Part shown: positions 5,955 through 63,050 of the stretch, piece by piece
Layout of the letters: each line of letters opens with the position of its first letter
Position numbering within the stretch: the stretch's first letter is position 1
Sequence record: OL770074.2
Source of the DNA: Escherichia phage vB_EcoM-RPN187
Strand: one strand, 5' to 3'
DNA length: 64,000 nucleotides
Translations under genes and position numbers: made by a program
The notes under the pieces: model-generated
The model's input: the letters and a program-made list of their open reading frames with translations, nothing else
The model's database searches: none
What the model was told of the DNA's origin: nothing

Positions 5955-5978
5955 TCTTAATTGATTAAATCTTATTTT

Positions 5979-5996
5979 GGGAGACTTCGGTCTCCC
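5979..5996. terminator. CUUCGG tetraloop hairpin terminator after gene 23 (bidirectional context)
   Basis: GGGAGA-CTTCGG-TCTCCC followed by ATTTTT; preceded by T-run on the other strand, so also serves the convergent minus ORF. Confidence 0.8.
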
Positions 5997-6006
5997 ATTT
6001 TTGGTT

Positions 6007-7661: not shown

Positions 7662-7669
7662 AAAAAAAA

Positions 7670-7685
7670 GGGACCTTACGGTCCC
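7670..7685. terminator. bidirectional hairpin terminator between gene 24 and rnlB
   Basis: GGGACC-TTAC-GGTCCC flanked by A10 upstream and T5 downstream. Confidence 0.75.
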
Positions 7686-7692
7686 TTTTTCG

Positions 7693-9259: not shown

Positions 9260-9334
9260 TCCCGTATTATTTGGTTTGTGCCATTATACACATCAATCTC
9301 AAGATGTGTTTTGTATGCTTTAAAAACGAAGAAA

Positions 9335-9348
9335 GGGGCCGAAGCCCC
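9335..9348 (-). terminator. UUCG-tetraloop hairpin after hoc
   Basis: GGGGC-CGAAG-CCCC on plus gives UUCG loop on the minus transcript, followed by T-rich tract. Confidence 0.6.
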
Positions 9349-9354
9349 TTACGA

Positions 9355-10934: not shown

Positions 10935-12449
10935 ATGACTGACATTAAAGTACATTTTTATGATTTTAGTCACGTGCGCATTGAATGCGACGAAAGTACG
11001 TTTTACGAACTTCGTGACTTTTTTAGTTTTGAAGCTGACGGGTATAAATTTAACCCAAAATATCGCTATGGGAACTGGGATGGTAGAATTCGACTTTTAG
11101 ATTATAACCGTTTGTTACCATATGGACTTGTAGGACAAATAAAAAAGTTCTGTAATAATATGAGTTATTCTGTATGGATTGACCCTAAAATATTTGAGAC
11201 CGAAGACCTTACCAGGGAAGATTTTGACGCATGGCTTTCTAAACAAGAAATTTATTCGGGCAACTCCAAAATCGAACCACATTGGTATCAAAAAGATGCA
11301 GTATACGAAGGATTAGTTAATCGTCGTCGAATTTTAAACCTTCCGACATCAGCAGGTAAATCACTAATCCAAGCACTTTTAGCTCGATATTATCTAGAGA
11401 ACTATGAAGGTAAAATTCTCATTATCGTCCCTACAACAGCATTGACAACCCAGATGGCTAATGATTTTGTTGATTATCGCTTGTTTAGTCATTCGATGAT
11501 TAAGAAAATTGGCGGTGGTGCTGATAAAGCAGACAGAGCTAAAAACGACGCTCCAATTATTGTTGGCACATGGCAAACAGTAGTTAAGCAGCCTAAAGAA
11601 TGGTTCTCTCAGTTCGGTATGATGATGAATGATGAATGCCACTTAGCAACAGGCAAAAGTATTTCTTCAATCATCTCAGGATTAAATAATTGCATGTTTA
11701 AATTCGGTTTATCTGGCTCATTAAGAGATGGAAAAGCCAATGTAATGCAGTACGTAGGTATGTTCGGCGAAATCTTCCGTCCTGTTAGCACGTCTAAATT
11801 AATGGAAGACGGACAGGTAACTGAGCTTAAGATTAATAGTATTTTCCTTCGTTATCCGGACGAATTCACCGTTAAATTAAAAGGTAAAACATACCAAGAA
11901 GAAGTTAAAATTATTACCGGACTAAAACGACGTACAAAGTGGATTGCTCAACTTTCAGTCAAATTGGCTAAGAAAGACGAGAACGCCTTTGTAATGTTTA
12001 AACACGTTACACACGGTAAAGAAATATTTGAAGCTATTAAAGAGCTTGGATACGAAAAAGTTTATTACGTATCAGGTGAAGTTGATACTGAAACACGTAA
12101 CGCGCTTAAAGTCATGGCAGAAAATGGTAAAGGCATTATTATTGTCGCATCATATGGAGTATTCTCTACTGGTATTTCAGTCAAGAATCTTCATCATGTT
12201 ATTTTTGCCCATGGTGTTAAATCAAAAATTATCGTACTTCAAACCGTAGGTCGCGTGCTTCGTAAGCATGGTTCTAAAGCTGTTGCTACAGTTTGGGATC
12301 TCATCGATGACGCAGGTGTAAAACCTAAATCATTAAATACTAAAAAGAAGTATACTCATCTTAATTACTTGTTAAAACACGGTATTGATCGTATCCAACG
12401 TTACGCTGATGAGAAATTTAACTATGTAATGAAAACAATTAATTTATAA
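10935..12449 (+). CDS. uvsW: UvsW DNA/RNA helicase (SF2)
   Basis: 504-aa ORF; Walker A PTSAGKS, DECH box (MMMNDECHL), SF2 motifs; T4 UvsW 502 aa. Confidence 0.95.
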   Translation: MTDIKVHFYDFSHVRIECDESTFYELRDFFSFEADGYKFNPKYRYGNWDGRIRLLDYNRLLPYGLVGQIKKFCNNMSYSVWIDPKIFETEDLTREDFDAWLSKQEIYSGNSKIEPHWYQKDAVYEGLVNRRRILNLPTSAGKSLIQALLARYYLENYEGKILIIVPTTALTTQMANDFVDYRLFSHSMIKKIGGGADKADRAKNDAPIIVGTWQTVVKQPKEWFSQFGMMMNDECHLATGKSISSIISGLNNCMFKFGLSGSLRDGKANVMQYVGMFGEIFRPVSTSKLMEDGQVTELKINSIFLRYPDEFTVKLKGKTYQEEVKIITGLKRRTKWIAQLSVKLAKKDENAFVMFKHVTHGKEIFEAIKELGYEKVYYVSGEVDTETRNALKVMAENGKGIIIVASYGVFSTGISVKNLHHVIFAHGVKSKIIVLQTVGRVLRKHGSKAVATVWDLIDDAGVKPKSLNTKKKYTHLNYLLKHGIDRIQRYADEKFNYVMKTINL

Positions 12450-12464
12450 GGGCTTCGGCCCTTA
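12449..12464 (+). other. CUUCGG hairpin between uvsW and uvsW.1 (no T-run; RNA structure)
   Basis: AAGGGC-TTCG-GCCCTT overlapping uvsW stop, immediately followed by SD AGGAG of uvsW.1. Confidence 0.5.
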
Positions 12465-12474
12465 GGAGATAAAA

Positions 12475-13680: not shown

Positions 13681-14078
13681 TACACTCTATTGCTTGACGC
13701 TAACTGAAGTTTAATTTGTTCAATATCGTCAGGGTTGTCTACGACCGAAAATCTAATCTCTACTATAACCGTATAGTCATCATATACTGGCGTTACACTC
13801 ACAGAAAGTTTGTCGATGCGTGGCTCATAGTTACGAACAGCTGCCTGGATATTACGCTCAATCGTATCGGCTGTAAGTGGTGTCATGTTCTCGAAAAGTT
13901 CGTCGACCAAATCGCATCCAAATTCAGGGTCGAAGGGGCGTGAGCCTTTTCTAGTTGTCACTATGCCAAGAAGACTATTTTTAATAGAACGAAGTCCTAC
14001 AGAACGAGCAACGTCCTTGTTCCAATCCATACGCATTTCTGGGTCGATATCTGAATAAAGTTTATTGATATTAGACAT
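13680..14078 (-). CDS. 25: baseplate wedge protein gp25
   Basis: 132-aa ORF (T4 gp25 132 aa); synteny. Confidence 0.9.
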   Translation of the reverse strand: MSNINKLYSDIDPEMRMDWNKDVARSVGLRSIKNSLLGIVTTRKGSRPFDPEFGCDLVDELFENMTPLTADTIERNIQAAVRNYEPRIDKLSVSVTPVYDDYTVIVEIRFSVVDNPDDIEQIKLQLASSNRV

Positions 14079-14704
14079 TATAGTAACTCAAAGAATTCTT
14101 TGAGGCCTCGTATTGTGTGAACGTGTGACGCCCCACATTTGGGACATTTAATAGGGGTTGCCAGATAAATTGATGGCGATACTAAAAGATTTTTAATATT
14201 GATCATGTCATCTTCTGTTATAAGGCCGTAAAGGTCGTTTATTTCTGCTTCAGTTAAATCTTCAACAGGGATGGACTCTCCATTGACAAAAACAGCCTCA
14301 ATACATGAAGCAATCATTAATGCGATATTTTTATCGTCAAATAATTTAGGTTGACGGAACTTAATTTTAATACCACTGAACGAATACCAGGGATCGGCCT
14401 GTTCATCTAATCGAGTGTGCAATAAATTCATATAGACTTGAAATGAATGCCCACAGGAACAATTCCAGGTGTGTTCTTGATTCACTTCACCTAATGAATG
14501 TGCCCACAGATTTACCAACAATAACTCGGCTTCTTGTTTAGTCAAGTTTTTAGCGTTAGAGCAATTAGTGATAATATTGTTCACTGCTGATTCAATAGTA
14601 CCTGTAGCCCGCGCACCTATGAGTCCTAGATATTCTTTTAAAGTAAAGGCTCTACAATTCACTTCTTTATCGCCTAAACGTACGGTAAACGTATATTTGT
14701 ACAT
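14078..14704 (-). CDS. 26: baseplate hub protein gp26
   Basis: 208-aa ORF (T4 gp26 208 aa); start-overlaps gene 25. Confidence 0.85.
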   Translation of the reverse strand: MYKYTFTVRLGDKEVNCRAFTLKEYLGLIGARATGTIESAVNNIITNCSNAKNLTKQEAELLLVNLWAHSLGEVNQEHTWNCSCGHSFQVYMNLLHTRLDEQADPWYSFSGIKIKFRQPKLFDDKNIALMIASCIEAVFVNGESIPVEDLTEAEINDLYGLITEDDMINIKNLLVSPSIYLATPIKCPKCGASHVHTIRGLKEFFELL

Positions 14705-23477: not shown

Positions 23478-23517
23478 AGTGTTTTCCTTTTAGTAATAAT
23501 TTATATTTATGCCAAAA

Positions 23518-23533
23518 AGAGCCCGAAGGCTCT
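23518..23533 (-). other. UUCG-tetraloop hairpin upstream of alt
   Basis: AGAGCC-CGAA-GGCTCT on plus (UUCG on minus transcript) followed by T-run. Confidence 0.55.
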
Positions 23534-23721
23534 TAATCCACAATCGGGAGCAAAGTACGATAAACTTCAAAATTAGGGCCTTTTTCGTACCCATTAACGT
23601 TATCTACGAAAACCCGATACGAATTTTCATTAGGAAAATCTAATATAATCTGAGAGCAAGAGGTGGAAACATCTCCACCATCCTTCTTAGCTACAATAAC
23701 TGTTTCTAAATAAGCTTTCAT
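23533..23721 (-). CDS. hypothetical protein
   Basis: 62 aa from MKAYLETV; start overlaps gene 30 stop (TAATG). Confidence 0.4.
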   Translation of the reverse strand: MKAYLETVIVAKKDGGDVSTSCSQIILDFPNENSYRVFVDNVNGYEKGPNFEVYRTLLPIVD

Positions 23722-27232: not shown

Positions 27233-27247
27233 AATATTTTCCTCAAT

Positions 27248-27263
27248 GGAGGCTTCGGCCTCC
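27248..27263 (-). other. CUUCGG hairpin (intercistronic)
   Basis: GGAGGC-TTCG-GCCTCC followed by ATTTTTA. Confidence 0.5.
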
Positions 27264-27273
27264 ATTTTTAAGA

Positions 27274-28153: not shown

Positions 28154-28189
28154 TCTTTTTTAAACTTTTTCTGCCCTAAACGCACAAAA

Positions 28190-28207
28190 GGGAGACCGAA
28201 GTCTCCC
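28190..28207 (-). terminator. CUUCGG tetraloop hairpin terminator
   Basis: GGGAGA-CCGAAG-TCTCCC (identical 18-mer family) downstream of small ORF stop, followed by T-rich tract on minus. Confidence 0.7.
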
Positions 28208-28212
28208 TAAAA

Positions 28213-36426: not shown

Positions 36427-36837
36427 CTACTTTTTCTTATGTTGGATATTCCAAGGCGGGTTGAACTTTTTGATAAAAAGCGGTTCTTCAAGGTCCATTG
36501 TTGCGATGGTCATTGAACCAAGTTCGTTGGTGACTGAAAGGTCAAAACATTGGCGGGCCCAGAATTCAACCTTTTTGCCTTGCATTAAGGCATCCAAAAT
36601 CATAAGTGATTTTCTTGAATCTGAAGTCTGGTCTTTTCGATTTATGGCTGTTCGATAATAGTTAATGCGTTTCTTTAAATTCTTGGTTTTACCAATATAC
36701 ACAAGCTCGTCATCTATAGCAATAGCGTATATGACATTTTTCTTATTAGGGACATCAACTGTTTTAATTGTTGCATCTTCTAATAGCTCCAATTCTGTAT
36801 ATTTAATAAAGGAATATTCGGCGGCAATATCTTTCAT
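36427..36837 (-). CDS. denA: endonuclease II (DenA)
   Basis: 136-aa ORF (T4 DenA 136 aa); GIY-YIG-like segment VIYAIAIDDELVYIGKT; position next to nrdB. Confidence 0.8.
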   Translation of the reverse strand: MKDIAAEYSFIKYTELELLEDATIKTVDVPNKKNVIYAIAIDDELVYIGKTKNLKKRINYYRTAINRKDQTSDSRKSLMILDALMQGKKVEFWARQCFDLSVTNELGSMTIATMDLEEPLFIKKFNPPWNIQHKKK

Positions 36838-36845
36838 AATAAAGT

Positions 36846-36859
36846 GGGACCGAAGTCCC
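36846..36859 (-). other. UUCG-tetraloop hairpin between nrdB and denA
   Basis: GGGAC-CGAAG-TCCC. Confidence 0.5.
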
Positions 36860-36863
36860 GTCC

Positions 36864-38054
36864 TTAGAAATATTTTTTGTATGAATTGATTACATTTTGG
36901 TCTACATCATTATCAATTTGTGCGACAAGATAAGAACTGATTTCAACTTCCTGAGGAGCTGCTTGAACTAAATCAGAGTTCAGATATTCACGAATCCAAG
37001 GATACGGATGCTTGGTCGGAGCATCAGTGATTGGGCAGGGTAAACCACACTGTTTCATACGAGACACAGTCAAGTAATCAACAAAAGCACACATACTCTG
37101 CGTATTGATACCTGGACATGTACCGTCTTTAAAGAGGTGTGCAGCCCATTCCTTCTCTTGACTATTTACTTCCATAAAAATGCCAACTGCTTCTTGTTCA
37201 CATTCTTTAGCAATTTGAACCCACTCATCACCGTCAGTACCAGATTGAAGTTGACGGATAATGTACTGAGTACCCTTTAGGTGGAGTTGTTCGTCACGAG
37301 CAATGAACTTCATAATCTTTGCATTACCTTCCATAATTTCCATATTTTTATGGAAGTTGAAAGTACATGCGAAAGATACATAAAAACGAATAGCTTCCAA
37401 GGCGTTAATTACATGAAGGCAAAGATAAAGAGATTTCATTAGCTCACGCTTCCAATATGTCTCATGCTCAATAGCATCTTCAATAACGTCTTCGTCTGCA
37501 TTAATTTCTTTTTGGTATTTGATATCAGCTTTAGCGTTTTCCCAATAACGAGTTTTAACCAGAACATCATCGTAATATTTACCTATTGATTCAGCTCGTT
37601 TCATGATTGCTTCGTCTAATACAATCTCATCAAATACCTTAGACGGATCGGTATAAAGATTTCGCATAATATGAGTATACGAACGAGAGTGAATAGTTTC
37701 GCTGAATGTCCATGTTGCAACCCACGTATCTAATGAAGGGTCAGAAATCAGTGCCATAAGTACCGCAGATGGGGCTCTGCCTTGGATAGAATCTAATAAT
37801 GATTGATACTTAAGATTGTTTGTAAAGATGTCCTGTTGGAACTGAGGAAGCTTATTGAACTGCGCAGAGTCCAACATCAAGTTTACCTCTTCGGGGCGCC
37901 AGAAAAACGAGAGCTGACGTTCAATAAGTTCTTCAAATACTCGATGTCGTTGAATATCATAACGAGCTAAACCTAATCCAGAACCAAAGAACATCGGTTC
38001 ATTCAAAACATCAACTTGTTGTGTGTTAAAAACTGTACTCATTATATTTCTCAC
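36864..38054 (-). CDS. nrdB: ribonucleotide reductase small subunit NrdB (intron-less)
   Basis: 396-aa uninterrupted ORF with class Ia R2 ferritin-like features; T4 nrdB carries a group I intron, none here. Confidence 0.93.
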   Translation of the reverse strand: MRNIMSTVFNTQQVDVLNEPMFFGSGLGLARYDIQRHRVFEELIERQLSFFWRPEEVNLMLDSAQFNKLPQFQQDIFTNNLKYQSLLDSIQGRAPSAVLMALISDPSLDTWVATWTFSETIHSRSYTHIMRNLYTDPSKVFDEIVLDEAIMKRAESIGKYYDDVLVKTRYWENAKADIKYQKEINADEDVIEDAIEHETYWKRELMKSLYLCLHVINALEAIRFYVSFACTFNFHKNMEIMEGNAKIMKFIARDEQLHLKGTQYIIRQLQSGTDGDEWVQIAKECEQEAVGIFMEVNSQEKEWAAHLFKDGTCPGINTQSMCAFVDYLTVSRMKQCGLPCPITDAPTKHPYPWIREYLNSDLVQAAPQEVEISSYLVAQIDNDVDQNVINSYKKYF

Positions 38055-42933: not shown

Positions 42934-42951
42934 GGGAGACCGAAGTCTCCC
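42934..42951 (-). terminator. CUUCGG tetraloop terminator after gene 32
   Basis: GGGAGA-CCGAAG-TCTCCC 7 nt after gene 32 stop, followed by T-run on minus. Confidence 0.8.
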
Positions 42952-51258: not shown

Positions 51259-51276
51259 GGGAGACTTCGGTCTCCC
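51259..51276 (+). terminator. CUUCGG tetraloop terminator after gene 35
   Basis: GGGAGA-CTTCGG-TCTCCC (identical to the one after gene 23) followed by ATTTTT. Confidence 0.8.
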
Positions 51277-51283
51277 ATTTTTG

Positions 51284-51291
51284 TATAAATA
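51284..51291 (+). promoter_or_regulatory. late promoter TATAAATA for gene 36
   Basis: exact TATAAATA 25 nt upstream of gene 36 ATG. Confidence 0.6.
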
Positions 51292-54900: not shown

Positions 54901-55001
54901 CAATTGGTTCCCATGGACATACAATAACTGTAAATGCCACAGGAAATACAGAAAACACAGTTAAAAACGTTGCTTTTAACTATATCGTTCGTTTAGCATA
55001 A
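51987..55001 (+). CDS. 37: long tail fiber distal subunit gp37 (receptor-binding tip, T4 type)
   Basis: 1004-aa ORF; C-terminal His-x-His boxes; followed by T4-type gp38 chaperone. Confidence 0.95.
54453..54932 (+). repeat. His-box (G-x-H-x-H) repeat region of gp37 needle domain with short tandem DNA repeats
   Basis: HSHS, HNHT, HQHA, HAHS, HAHT, HTHS, HTHT, HGHT motifs; duplicated KTTSSFDYG and VGIGAHTH units. Confidence 0.7.
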
Positions 55002-55031
55002 GGAGAAGGGACTTCTGTCCCTTTTTATAAT
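55001..55031 (+). promoter_or_regulatory. split ribosome-binding site of gene 38: SD, stable hairpin, then AUG
   Basis: SD AGGAG (55001-55005), hairpin GGGAC-TTCT-GTCCC (55008-55021) plus T5, ATG at 55032; hairpin doubles as terminator after gene 37. Confidence 0.6.
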
Positions 55032-55583
55032 ATGAAACTCTATCACTATTATTTTGACACTAAAGAATTTTACAAAGAAGAAAATTACAAACCATTAAAA
55101 GGCGTAGGATTTCCGGCTCATTCGACACCAAAAAAACCTTTAGACCCTAAAGAAGGCTATGCTATTATATTTGACGAACGCGAGCAAGAATGGGTATATG
55201 TTGAAGACCATCGTGGAAAAACGGTATGGACTTATGATAAGCAAAAAATTGTTATTGACACTCCAGGTGCTCTTCAAAATGTTACTACAGAAGAACCCGG
55301 CGAATTTGACATTTGGACCGACGACGGGTGGAAGGAAGATGAAGCATATAAACGCGTAGTTCAACGTGATAAGAAAATTCATGAACTCTATAAATTATTC
55401 AGTGTTTTAAGTTCTCTTATTGACGCAGAGGTTGCTAATAGAGAAGAAAAACGAAAATTTAAAGAGCTCAAAAAATTCTTTGCCCTTTTAGAAAAGCATG
55501 AACATCTTGGCGGTGAATTCCCTAAATTCCCTGACCTTGAAAACAAATCTATTGTCAAAGCGATTATAAATATCTTTAAGTAA
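55032..55583 (+). CDS. 38: gp38 long tail fiber assembly chaperone (T4 type)
   Basis: 183-aa ORF; N-terminus MKLYHYYFDTKEFYKEENYKP and C-terminal LLEKHEHLGGEFP match recalled T4 gp38. Confidence 0.9.
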   Translation: MKLYHYYFDTKEFYKEENYKPLKGVGFPAHSTPKKPLDPKEGYAIIFDEREQEWVYVEDHRGKTVWTYDKQKIVIDTPGALQNVTTEEPGEFDIWTDDGWKEDEAYKRVVQRDKKIHELYKLFSVLSSLIDAEVANREEKRKFKELKKFFALLEKHEHLGGEFPKFPDLENKSIVKAIINIFK

Positions 55584-55592
55584 GGAGGTATT

Positions 55593-56252
55593 ATGGCAAC
55601 ACCAAAAGTATCATCTTCGCCTAGTGATATTCTATTTGGGTTGCTAGATCGTATTTTCAAAGATAACGCTACTGGAAAGGTTTTAATGTCTCGAGTAGCG
55701 GTAATTATTCTTTTGTTCCTAATGGCACTAATATGGTACAAAGGAAGTATTTTGCTGGATTATTATGTAAGAGCTAAGTATGATACTTATACTGAAATAA
55801 TCCAAAAAGAACGAGCTTTACGTTTTGAATCTGCGGCTCTAGAACAACTGCAAATAGTTCATATCTCATCTGGTGCAGATTTTAGTGCTGTGTATTCTTT
55901 CAGACCTAAAAACTTAAATTATTTCGTCGACCTTATAGCTTATGAAGGCAAACTACCTAGCACAATTTCTGAAAAGTCCCTTGGCGGATTCCCGGTGGAT
56001 AAAACGGCTAATGAATATATAATTCATTTAAGTGGCCGTCATTTCTCATCTAAATCAGAATTTGCATTTTTGCCTACAAAATCTAAGACTGCCGAACTTT
56101 CTTATATGTATAGTTGTCCATACTTTAATTTGGATAACATCTATGCTGGAACTGTGACGATGTATTGGTATAAGGGGAGTAATATACTTGAGGAAGATCG
56201 CTTAGCGGCTATATGCAACCAAGCGATCCGAATACTAGGAAGGGCTAAATAA
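55593..56252 (+). CDS. t: holin T
   Basis: 219-aa ORF near-identical to recalled T4 holin; SD AAGGAGG; one N-terminal TM helix and large periplasmic domain. Confidence 0.95.
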   Translation: MATPKVSSSPSDILFGLLDRIFKDNATGKVLMSRVAVIILLFLMALIWYKGSILLDYYVRAKYDTYTEIIQKERALRFESAALEQLQIVHISSGADFSAVYSFRPKNLNYFVDLIAYEGKLPSTISEKSLGGFPVDKTANEYIIHLSGRHFSSKSEFAFLPTKSKTAELSYMYSCPYFNLDNIYAGTVTMYWYKGSNILEEDRLAAICNQAIRILGRAK

Positions 56253-59087: not shown

Positions 59088-59114
59088 TGTTTTGTGAGAA
59101 AAAATGCACAAAAA

Positions 59115-59128
59115 GGAGCCGAAGCTCC
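59115..59128 (-). terminator. UUCG-tetraloop hairpin downstream of gene 52
   Basis: GGAGC-CGAAG-CTCC, followed on minus by T5. Confidence 0.6.
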
Positions 59129-59205
59129 CTAATCATGTTTGTCCAACCAATACAGCCAAATCACTAGTGCAGCTATTGCACCGAGAAATCCCAAGGCTAG
59201 GGCAC

Positions 59206-60831: not shown

Positions 60832-60844
60832 ATTTTCCTCATTA

Positions 60845-60858
60845 GCGTCCGAAGACGC
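60845..60858 (-). other. UUCG-tetraloop hairpin
   Basis: GCGTC-CGAA-GACGC. Confidence 0.4.
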
Positions 60859-60918
60859 CTTTAGTTTTAAGATTGTTACGATAGAACTGCATCACATGTT
60901 CGTTATGGAAATTACTCA

Positions 60919-63034: not shown

Positions 63035-63050
63035 GGGGACCGAAGTCCCC
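63035..63050 (-). terminator. UUCG-tetraloop terminator after rIIB
   Basis: GGGGAC-CGAAG-TCCCC with T5 on minus strand. Confidence 0.7.

Follow-up and report, generated by a model that had tools for sequence, protein, structure and literature searches.

How is translation of gene 38 initiated when the only Shine-Dalgarno (SD) sequence available to it lies far upstream of its start codon? This question is raised by the junction between genes 37 and 38 in a 64,000-nucleotide stretch of Escherichia phage vB_EcoM-RPN187 (sequence record OL770074.2), with the whole of that stretch being referred to as the window. The junction reads GCA-UAAGGAGAAGGGACUUCUGUCCCUUUUUAUAAU-AUG. Here, the UAA stop codon of gene 37 at 54999-55001 overlaps the SD of the next gene, and a 14-nt hairpin, GGGAC-UUCU-GUCCC at 55008-55021, lies between the SD and the gene 38 AUG. 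Measured from AGGAG at 55001-55005 to the AUG at 55032, the SD-AUG distance is 26 nt (55006-55031). A functional spacing between the two elements is 5-13 nt and an unbridged spacing of 26 nt is non-functional. The features of the junction and its surroundings are collected in Table 1.

Table 1. Features at and around the gene 37/38 junction of the window.
Feature	Position	Strand	Basis or remark
Gene 37 (long tail fibre distal subunit), 1004 aa, C-terminus ...NYIVRLA-UAA	51987..55001	+	ORF; Pfam Collar, gp37_trimer, Gp34_trimer; homologous records annotated gp37
Shine-Dalgarno UAAGGAG of gene 38; bases 1-3 are the gene 37 stop codon	54999..55005	+	anti-SD duplex -9.3 kcal/mol; 11/11 split types
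Putative bridging hairpin AAGGGAC-UUCU-GUCCCUU	55006..55023	+	folds, stem energies, covariation
GC core of the hairpin, with loop and weak extension	core 55008-55012/55017-55021; loop 55013-55016; extension to 55003-55026	+	predicted fold
U5 run abutting the GC core on its 3' side (tail UUUUUAUAAU); candidate U-tract of a terminator, also in the extended stem	55022..55026	+	sequence; T-score 4.16
A/U-rich spacer UUUAUAAU, from the base of the 7-bp hairpin to the AUG	55024..55031	+	effective SD-AUG spacing with the hairpin folded
Gene 38, T4-type tail fibre assembly chaperone, 183 aa, AUG 55032-55034	55032..55583	+	ORF; Pfam Caudo_TAP
Holin gene t	55593-56252	+	Pfam Phage_holin_T supports identity
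Late promoter motif TATAAATA upstream of gene 36 (P36)	51284..51291	+	closest perfect late promoter 5' of gene 38
Late promoter motif TATAAATA for holin gene t, within the 3' end of gene 38	55565..55572	+	annotated T4-late-type promoter in SA35RD

The original prediction had placed AGGAG, the 14-nt hairpin, the U5 run at 55022-55026 and the AUG as given here, with a gap of 26 nt, and all of these coordinates are right. It had also named AGGAG as the sole SD-like sequence for gene 38. This was borne out by a hybridisation scan with the anti-SD, in which UAAGGAG (-9.3 kcal/mol) is the only SD-like site upstream of the gene 38 AUG and in which no 9-mer between the hairpin and the AUG pairs with the 16S 3' end at or below -3 kcal/mol. 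The term “split Shine-Dalgarno”, used for this arrangement, is inexact: the SD itself is an intact 7-mer, UAAGGAG. What is split is the ribosome-binding site (RBS), in which the SD stands apart from the AUG. The central proposal, that the hairpin bridges the two parts of the RBS, gains support from a junction homologous to that of T4, a covarying stem pair and an either/or placement of the SD among relatives, each of which is taken up below.

The precedent is T4, and the original prediction is correct that such an arrangement has been described for its gene 38. In T4 gene 38 mRNA, the SD-AUG spacing of 22 nt is cut to 5 nt by an intervening RNA structure (Uzan and Miller 2010, PMC3014915), and in gene 25 mRNA an intervening structure takes the spacing from 27 to 11 nt (PMC3014915). 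In both mRNAs the structure enhances initiation, and mutations that destabilise it reduce initiation (PMC3014915). For gene 38 and gene 25 alike, PMC3014915 cites the gene 25 paper (Nivinskas et al. 1999). The gene 25 split RBS has direct evidence from reporters and probing (Nivinskas 1999; Malys and Nivinskas 2009, summarised in PMC3014915).

The T4 junction reads UAAGGAGAGGGGCUUCGGCCCUUCUAAAUAUG and the window junction aligns base for base with positions 159621-159652 of NC_000866. Orthology of the two is indicated by conservation of the flanking C-terminus of gp37 and N-terminus of gp38; the gene 38 protein of the window is 66.5% identical to T4 gp38, with a conserved N-terminus, MK[IL]YHYYFDTKEFYKEENYKP. 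The window junction is thus orthologous to the split translation initiation region of T4 gene 38, an arrangement already known and not a new one. The two share the genes, the position, UAAGGAG over the gene 37 stop codon, a homologous GC hairpin and the lack of an SD near the AUG. They differ in spacing, which is 26 nt in the window and 22 nt in T4, and this gap is made up of one additional A before the stem, a C of the 3' arm that is missing in T4 and two additional bases in the tail. They also differ by an A-U instead of a G-C at the pair adjoining the loop-closing pair, in the loop (UUCU in the window, the extra-stable UUCG in T4) and in the tail, which is UUUUUAUAAU in the window and UUCUAAAU in T4, the window version being far more like an intrinsic terminator.

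With the gene 25 split RBS of T4, at the gene 26-25 junction, the window site shares the principle only: there, an SD 27 nt from the AUG is returned to working spacing by a hairpin, but that hairpin has an A/U-rich 7-bp stem and an AAUU loop, is followed by no U-tract, is unrelated in sequence and lies at another junction. An ortholog of the gene 25 site is present on the minus strand of the window, with GAGG at 14109-14106, the hairpin at 14104-14087, the AUG at 14078-14076 and a spacing of 27 nt. Another minus-strand hairpin, at 9333-9350, was considered as the gene 25 site and rejected, as it is a terminator-like hairpin that follows a different gene.

How would the bridge operate? The 30S subunit would pair with the UAAGGAG that overlaps the gene 37 stop codon, while the 18-nt hairpin at 55006-55023 would remain folded and be looped out of the path of the mRNA. 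The SD duplex would then be about 8 nt (UUUAUAAU) from the AUG, which is a normal spacing from which gene 38 initiation could proceed. Enhancement by such a structure is known from the T4 literature, and we consider hairpin-bridged initiation probable in this phage.

The hairpin is the dominant predicted fold at the junction. A 36-nt junction fragment has a minimum free energy (MFE) of -14.5 kcal/mol, with the MFE structure at an ensemble frequency of 78% and a z-score of -3.3, and 2 of 200 shuffled sequences fold equally well; in a 66-nt context the z-score is -2.9 and none of 200 shuffles folds as stably. The predicted stem energies are -8.7 kcal/mol for the GC core of 5 bp, -10.9 for 7 bp and -14.5 for 10 bp. 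The step from 5 to 7 bp adds two A-U pairs and that from 7 to 10 bp adds G.U, A-U and G.U.

The junction is widespread. A 701-nt query that spans it matches AV112 and AV113 at 99.7% identity, as well as many Tequatrovirus and Mosigvirus records. The exact 65-nt junction of the window, with its UUCU loop, is found in 29 GenBank records and 64 more carry it at 95-99% identity. For comparison, 26 junctions, representing 13 distinct types, were taken from GenBank phages, IMG/VR and metagenomes. Scans of IMG/VR with the gp38 protein and with the junction pattern yielded only two loci, one of which is the same contig twice, and a metagenome scan yielded 14 matches, 5 of which are true gp38 starts. 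A search of Rfam at permissive thresholds returned only chance matches, far below the gathering scores.

The split set consists of 11 of these distinct types, from phages of Tequatrovirus, Mosigvirus, Gaprivervirus and Dhakavirus; gp38 in these phages shares 62-100% identity with that of the window. In every one of these types UAAGGAG is followed by a hairpin and then by an AUG 7-10 nt past the 5-bp stem core. Most have a UUCG loop and the others have UUCU (the window), UUAG, UUUG or GUUA. The extra stability of UUCG is thus not required, since the window and 29 identical GenBank junctions carry UUCU. Within the stem, the pair that adjoins the loop-closing pair covaries (GC, 7; AU, 3; CG, 2) and 98.7% of the cells of the alignment are paired. 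The observed pairing or covariation score is reached by none of 500 shuffles, and slid registers score far lower. The covariation backing for the stem is real but modest, as it comes from a single variable pair in related sequences.

A different kind of evidence comes from where the SD is placed. In 11 of 11 split types there is an upstream SD of -9.1 to -9.3 kcal/mol and none downstream of the hairpin. The seven non-split types all have a downstream SD, of -5.9 to -10.0 kcal/mol, and upstream of the hairpin nothing stronger than -2.4 kcal/mol. Although indirect, this strict either/or placement is good evidence that the split group uses the far-upstream GGAG as its functional SD.

The seven non-split types come from T-even phages that are more distantly related: CkP1, Moon, PP01, X20, SEA1, Bp7 and Marfa. 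Downstream of gene 37, CkP1 and Moon have a homolog of the gp38 chaperone with about 35% identity, PP01, SEA1 and Bp7 carry an adhesin gp38 of the T2 type, in X20 an adhesin gene precedes a gene for a gp38 chaperone, and Marfa has an unrelated gene. In all seven, a GC tetraloop hairpin directly follows the gene 37 stop codon and the SD (GGAG, GGAGG, AAGGA or AGGAG) stands at canonical spacing downstream of that hairpin. The hairpin is thus older than the split arrangement, since it follows gene 37 in relatives that have their SD downstream at normal spacing. It probably also has a role that is tied to the 3' end of gene 37 and is independent of bridging. Such a history suggests an evolutionary route to split sites, in which an older hairpin comes to have the SD on one side or the other according to lineage.

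The same comparison bears on an alternative in which the hairpin is solely an element of the gene 37 3' end, either an attenuating terminator or a stabiliser of the mRNA, and gene 38 is translated without bridging. Here, gene 38 could be reached by re-initiation from the UAA 30 nt upstream (translational coupling) or through binding of S1 to UUUUUAUAAU. Conservation of the hairpin after gene 37, also at junctions where SD and AUG lie on the same side of it, fits this explanation, as do the terminator-like U5 tail, the A/U-rich tract that precedes the AUG in all split types and the overlap of stop codon and SD, which would deliver terminating ribosomes to the site. What it leaves unaccounted for is the SD itself: the GGAG past the gene 37 stop codon is non-coding, yet all 11 split types have it unchanged, while the spacer that follows the hairpin is variable. 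Junctions that lack the upstream GGAG all have a canonical SD beyond the hairpin, which is what a need for an SD would predict, and the enhancement in T4 is credited to the structure (PMC3014915). We regard an exclusive 3'-end role as unlikely.

In addition to bridging, the hairpin most likely acts on the 3' end of the gene 37 transcript. It may terminate part of the transcription or block 3' exonucleases, and either action would lower gene 38 message relative to gene 37. The original prediction had proposed the hairpin and its U-tract as a candidate intrinsic terminator that would couple chaperone stoichiometry to read-through. The site has both parts of such a terminator, a GC stem-loop (GGGAC-UUCU-GUCCC) and, immediately after it, a U-rich tract (UUUUUAUAAU). 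It also shares with intrinsic terminators and attenuators an A-rich 5' flank able to pair with the U run. The T-score of 4.16 for the window tail, UUUUUAUAAU, is the highest among the relatives (SP18, 3.29; ESCO47 and meta20, about 3.0; the T4 type, 2.28; CkP1, 1.73; Moon, 1.40). Within the window, it equals or exceeds that of most other intergenic GC hairpins, including the gene 35/36 hairpin (2.53), a site with a TransTerm-predicted terminator in each of the six T4-like genomes of a published comparison (PMC1524935). Furthermore, the GenBank records of MM02 and NBG1 annotate the orthologous hairpin as a putative terminator.

The U5 run, the T-score and the two annotations make a terminator possible at the sequence level, but the U-tract is not conserved and the site is absent from TransTerm lists. 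The hairpin itself is conserved, while the T4 type has UUCUAAAU, with UUCU in place of the U-tract, and no U run follows the stem in CkP1, Moon, PP01, X20, SEA1, Bp7 or Marfa. Published TransTerm predictions for RB69, RB49, RB43, 44RR and Aeh1 contain no terminator between genes 37 and 38, and the T4 GenBank records carry no regulatory features at this junction. A search of the accessible literature yielded no mapped RNA 3' ends and no terminator reported downstream of T4 gene 37. A consensus terminator scan of the window does not list the gene 37/38 site, a miss that we infer to arise because greedy stem extension takes in the U run. With 5 GC-rich pairs and -7.7 kcal/mol in the comparison of intergenic hairpins, the core stem is short. 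As a minus-strand terminator the hairpin was rejected, because on the reverse strand it is followed by CUCCUUAUGC, which contains no U run.

The transcription of gene 38 sets an upper limit on termination. Perfect TATAAATA motifs on the plus strand stand before gene 34 (46204), gene 36 (51284) and t (55565). Between P36 and gene 38 the window has no perfect copy, only sites with 1 mismatch, and the layout in T4 is the same. Lacking a perfect late promoter, gene 38 depends on transcripts that pass the hairpin, so termination there can only be partial, as the original prediction in fact proposed. Thus, unlike the terminators that close transcription units, this site lies inside a unit, with an essential gene downstream that lacks its own perfect promoter. 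At the gene 37/38 junction the hairpin would be at most an attenuator. As a gene 37 terminator it is plausible on sequence grounds only, and for this lineage, in which partial intrinsic termination is more likely than in T4, given the acquired U5. Attenuation would be compatible with the idea of chaperone stoichiometry, and a barrier to 3' exonuclease would have the same outcome. If the U5 version does attenuate, a single element of 30 nt would control how much chaperone mRNA is made and also how it is translated.

Two other candidates at the junction were rejected. A late promoter in the junction itself (in T4, TCTAAATA overlapping the AUG) cannot serve gene 38, as it would yield transcripts that begin at the AUG or beyond it. 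A fusion protein made by read-through of the stop codon could be imagined in the window, where gene 38 shares the reading frame of gene 37 with 33 nt from UAA to AUG, but the frame is not conserved: the UAA-AUG distance is 29 nt in T4 and 31 nt in ESCO47.

The predicted fold raises a further question, namely whether the hairpin holds gene 38 translation back. In the 10-bp stem (55003-55012 with 55017-55026), the SD bases GAG pair weakly with UUU, the first three U's of the spacer. The predicted probability that the SD bases 55003-55005 are unpaired in free RNA is 0.01-0.07, and the extension makes the 10-bp stem 3.6 kcal/mol more stable than the 7-bp stem. It also changes the effective SD-AUG spacing, which is 8 nt with the 7-bp stem and 5 nt with the 10-bp stem. 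By occluding three SD bases in free RNA, the extended stem could render the hairpin partly inhibitory. Taken further, the hairpin would be mainly a brake, in which pairing of GAG with the U run limits 30S access and keeps catalytic gp38 low relative to structural gp37, bridging being incidental. In line with this, the extended stem is at its longest in the window's lineage (10 bp, versus 6-9 bp in the MFE folds of relatives). The G.U, A-U and G.U pairs are, however, far weaker than the SD:anti-SD duplex. SD binding would first displace these three weak pairs, at a cost of 3.6 kcal/mol set against a duplex of -9.3 kcal/mol. Without the hairpin, moreover, 26 nt would separate the SD from the AUG, a spacing that does not function. 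Finally, in T4 a destabilised structure lowers initiation (PMC3014915). A function mainly as a brake is judged unlikely.

How common is the arrangement? The 117 ORFs of at least 60 aa in the window were scanned for the combination of no near SD, a far SD and an intervening hairpin. Only gene 38 passes strict thresholds, and under loose criteria genes 25, denA and 38 are the only ones that pass. GC tetraloop hairpins are common between the genes of this genome, but that an ordinary intergenic hairpin and a fortuitous GGAG came together by chance at gene 38 is very improbable, given a junction conserved over Tequatrovirus, Mosigvirus, Gaprivervirus and Dhakavirus with compensatory change and either/or SD placement, and a layout seen in only 3 of 117 ORFs, two of which are published T4 cases.

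Hairpin-bridged initiation, the preferred reading, would make the gene 38 junction a clean natural case of mRNA structure that activates, rather than blocks, translation. It also has practical consequences. Automated annotation often mishandles the junction, in that the hairpin is labelled as a terminator only and many records name gp38 “tail fibers protein”. When gene 37/38 cassettes are swapped in tail-fibre engineering, the stretch from stop/SD through the hairpin to the AUG should be kept whole, or chaperone expression may fail.

The third junction retrieved by the loose scan lies between nrdB and denA, on the minus strand at 36866-36835, and reads UAAGGAC-GGGACUUCGGUCCC-ACUUUAUU-AUG. It shares the overlap of stop codon and SD, the hairpin and the 8-nt spacer. 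The same arrangement is found in T4 GT7 (UAAGGAG-U-GGGCC-GCAA-GGCCC-A-UUUUAUU-AUG), Kosakonia phage 305 and Klebsiella phage phiA85, and 3 of the 6 pairs of the stem covary among four sequences, with Tequatrovirus, Kanagawavirus and Jiaodavirus represented. No description of a split RBS at nrdB/denA was found in the searchable literature, and the junction may be a third site of this kind.

A broader and more tentative possibility is that stop/SD, hairpin and AUG form a recurrent, evolvable intercistronic module of T-even phages, in which older 3'-end hairpins were co-opted as a bridge in some lineages. A shift of the SD onto the upstream stop codon would then turn a hairpin that sets the level of downstream message, through partial termination or 3' protection, into a bridge. 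This suggestion draws on the gene 37 hairpin that predates the split, the U5 added in this lineage and the layout at nrdB/denA.

The gene 38 hairpin also resembles the intercistronic C(UUCG)G hairpins of T4 mRNA, in which this tetraloop was first noticed (PMC4371310), by its short GC stem, its C-G closed tetraloop and its intergenic place. The window itself has C(UUCU)G at this site, while MM02, NBG1, HX01, phiEC1 and meta14 have C(UUCG)G. Over the whole window, CTTCGG occurs 35 times versus 16.7 expected, and there are about a dozen intergenic hairpins of this class.

Downstream of nrdB on the minus strand, the order of elements is a stop codon overlapping an SD-like AAGGA, a GC cUUCGg hairpin, 8 nt and the AUG of a denA-like ORF. 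This layout is identical to that of the gene 37/38 junction, and at the nrdB/denA junction no SD lies closer to the denA AUG than AAGGA. The arrangement is kept in T4 GT7, Kosakonia phage 305 and Klebsiella phage phiA85, and comparison of the window with these three reveals covariation at three of the six stem pairs of the hairpin. On its sequence, the nrdB/denA junction may be a third split ribosome-binding site, apparently undescribed, as no description of it was found in the searchable literature.

The split ribosome-binding site published for T4 gene 25 has its ortholog in the window as well. Here, the hairpin is CUCAAAG-AAUU-CUUUGAG and the SD-AUG spacing is 27 nt, which equals the literature value for T4 gene 25.

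Features of the window discussed in this section
Feature	Position	Strand	Elements
nrdB	36864..38054	minus	
denA-like ORF	36427..36837	minus	
nrdB/denA junction	36835-36866	minus	UAAGGAC-GGGACUUCGGUCCC-ACUUUAUU-AUG
Gene 25 split RBS	14076-14109	minus	GAGG 14109-14106; hairpin 14104-14087; AUG 14078-14076
Gene 35/36 junction	51259-51291	plus	cUUCGg hairpin GGGAGAC-UUCG-GUCUCCC, then AUUUUUGUAU, then late promoter motif
Late promoter motif TATAAATA	51284-51291	plus	3' of gene 35/36 hairpin
Long symmetric hairpin	7664-7691	both	GAAAAAGGGACC-GUAA-GGUCCCUUUUUU
Intergenic C(UUCG)G hairpins, examples	5978-5997, 27245-27266	plus	
Intergenic C(UUCG)G hairpins, examples	9333-9350, 23517-23534, 28189-28208, 42934-42951, 59113-59130, 63035-63050	minus	

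Genes 37 and 38 share a reading frame in the window (54999-55034), with UAA and ten sense codons between them; read-through of the stop codon would thus fuse the two genes. The frame relation does not hold in T4 (29 nt) and ESCO47 (31 nt), and because these differ, the match is probably coincidental.

About a dozen GC-rich intergenic hairpins with a C(UUCG)G loop are present in the whole window, most of them followed by a T-rich tail. The stem GGGAGAC/GUCUCCC recurs with the same sequence at four sites, and CTTCGG occurs 35 times in the window versus 16.7 expected, a count reached in none of 100 shuffles. Two further cUUCGg hairpins, at 12447-12474(+) and 60844-60859(-), have an SD (GGAG, GAGGA) directly 3', which is the order seen 3' of gene 37 in distant relatives.

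Read from its motifs, the gene 35/36 junction is a predicted terminator first and a promoter second. In all six T4-like genomes compared in PMC1524935, TransTerm predicts that genes 35 and 36 have a terminator between them. The strongest terminator-like site of the window is the hairpin at 7664-7691, which is flanked on either side by A and T runs and is probably bidirectional; its minus-strand tail is T10, with a T-score, the score of the T-rich tail after a hairpin, of 6.22.

Automated annotation of the junction hairpins is inconsistent among relatives. In phage Ac3 (L043, 202-224), the denA RBS is annotated within the hairpin and a terminator on the other strand, while for the gene 37/38 hairpin of MM02 (L002, 3307-3320) and NBG1 (L023, 766-802) the sole annotation is a terminator. 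In Serratia phage X20 (L037, 787-966), a 180-nt spacer leads from the adhesin gene to gene 38; it carries two copies of the direct repeat CGCCGCGCGCAACGAUGCUCACACAU, and the segment has a very stable fold (-69.5 kcal/mol).
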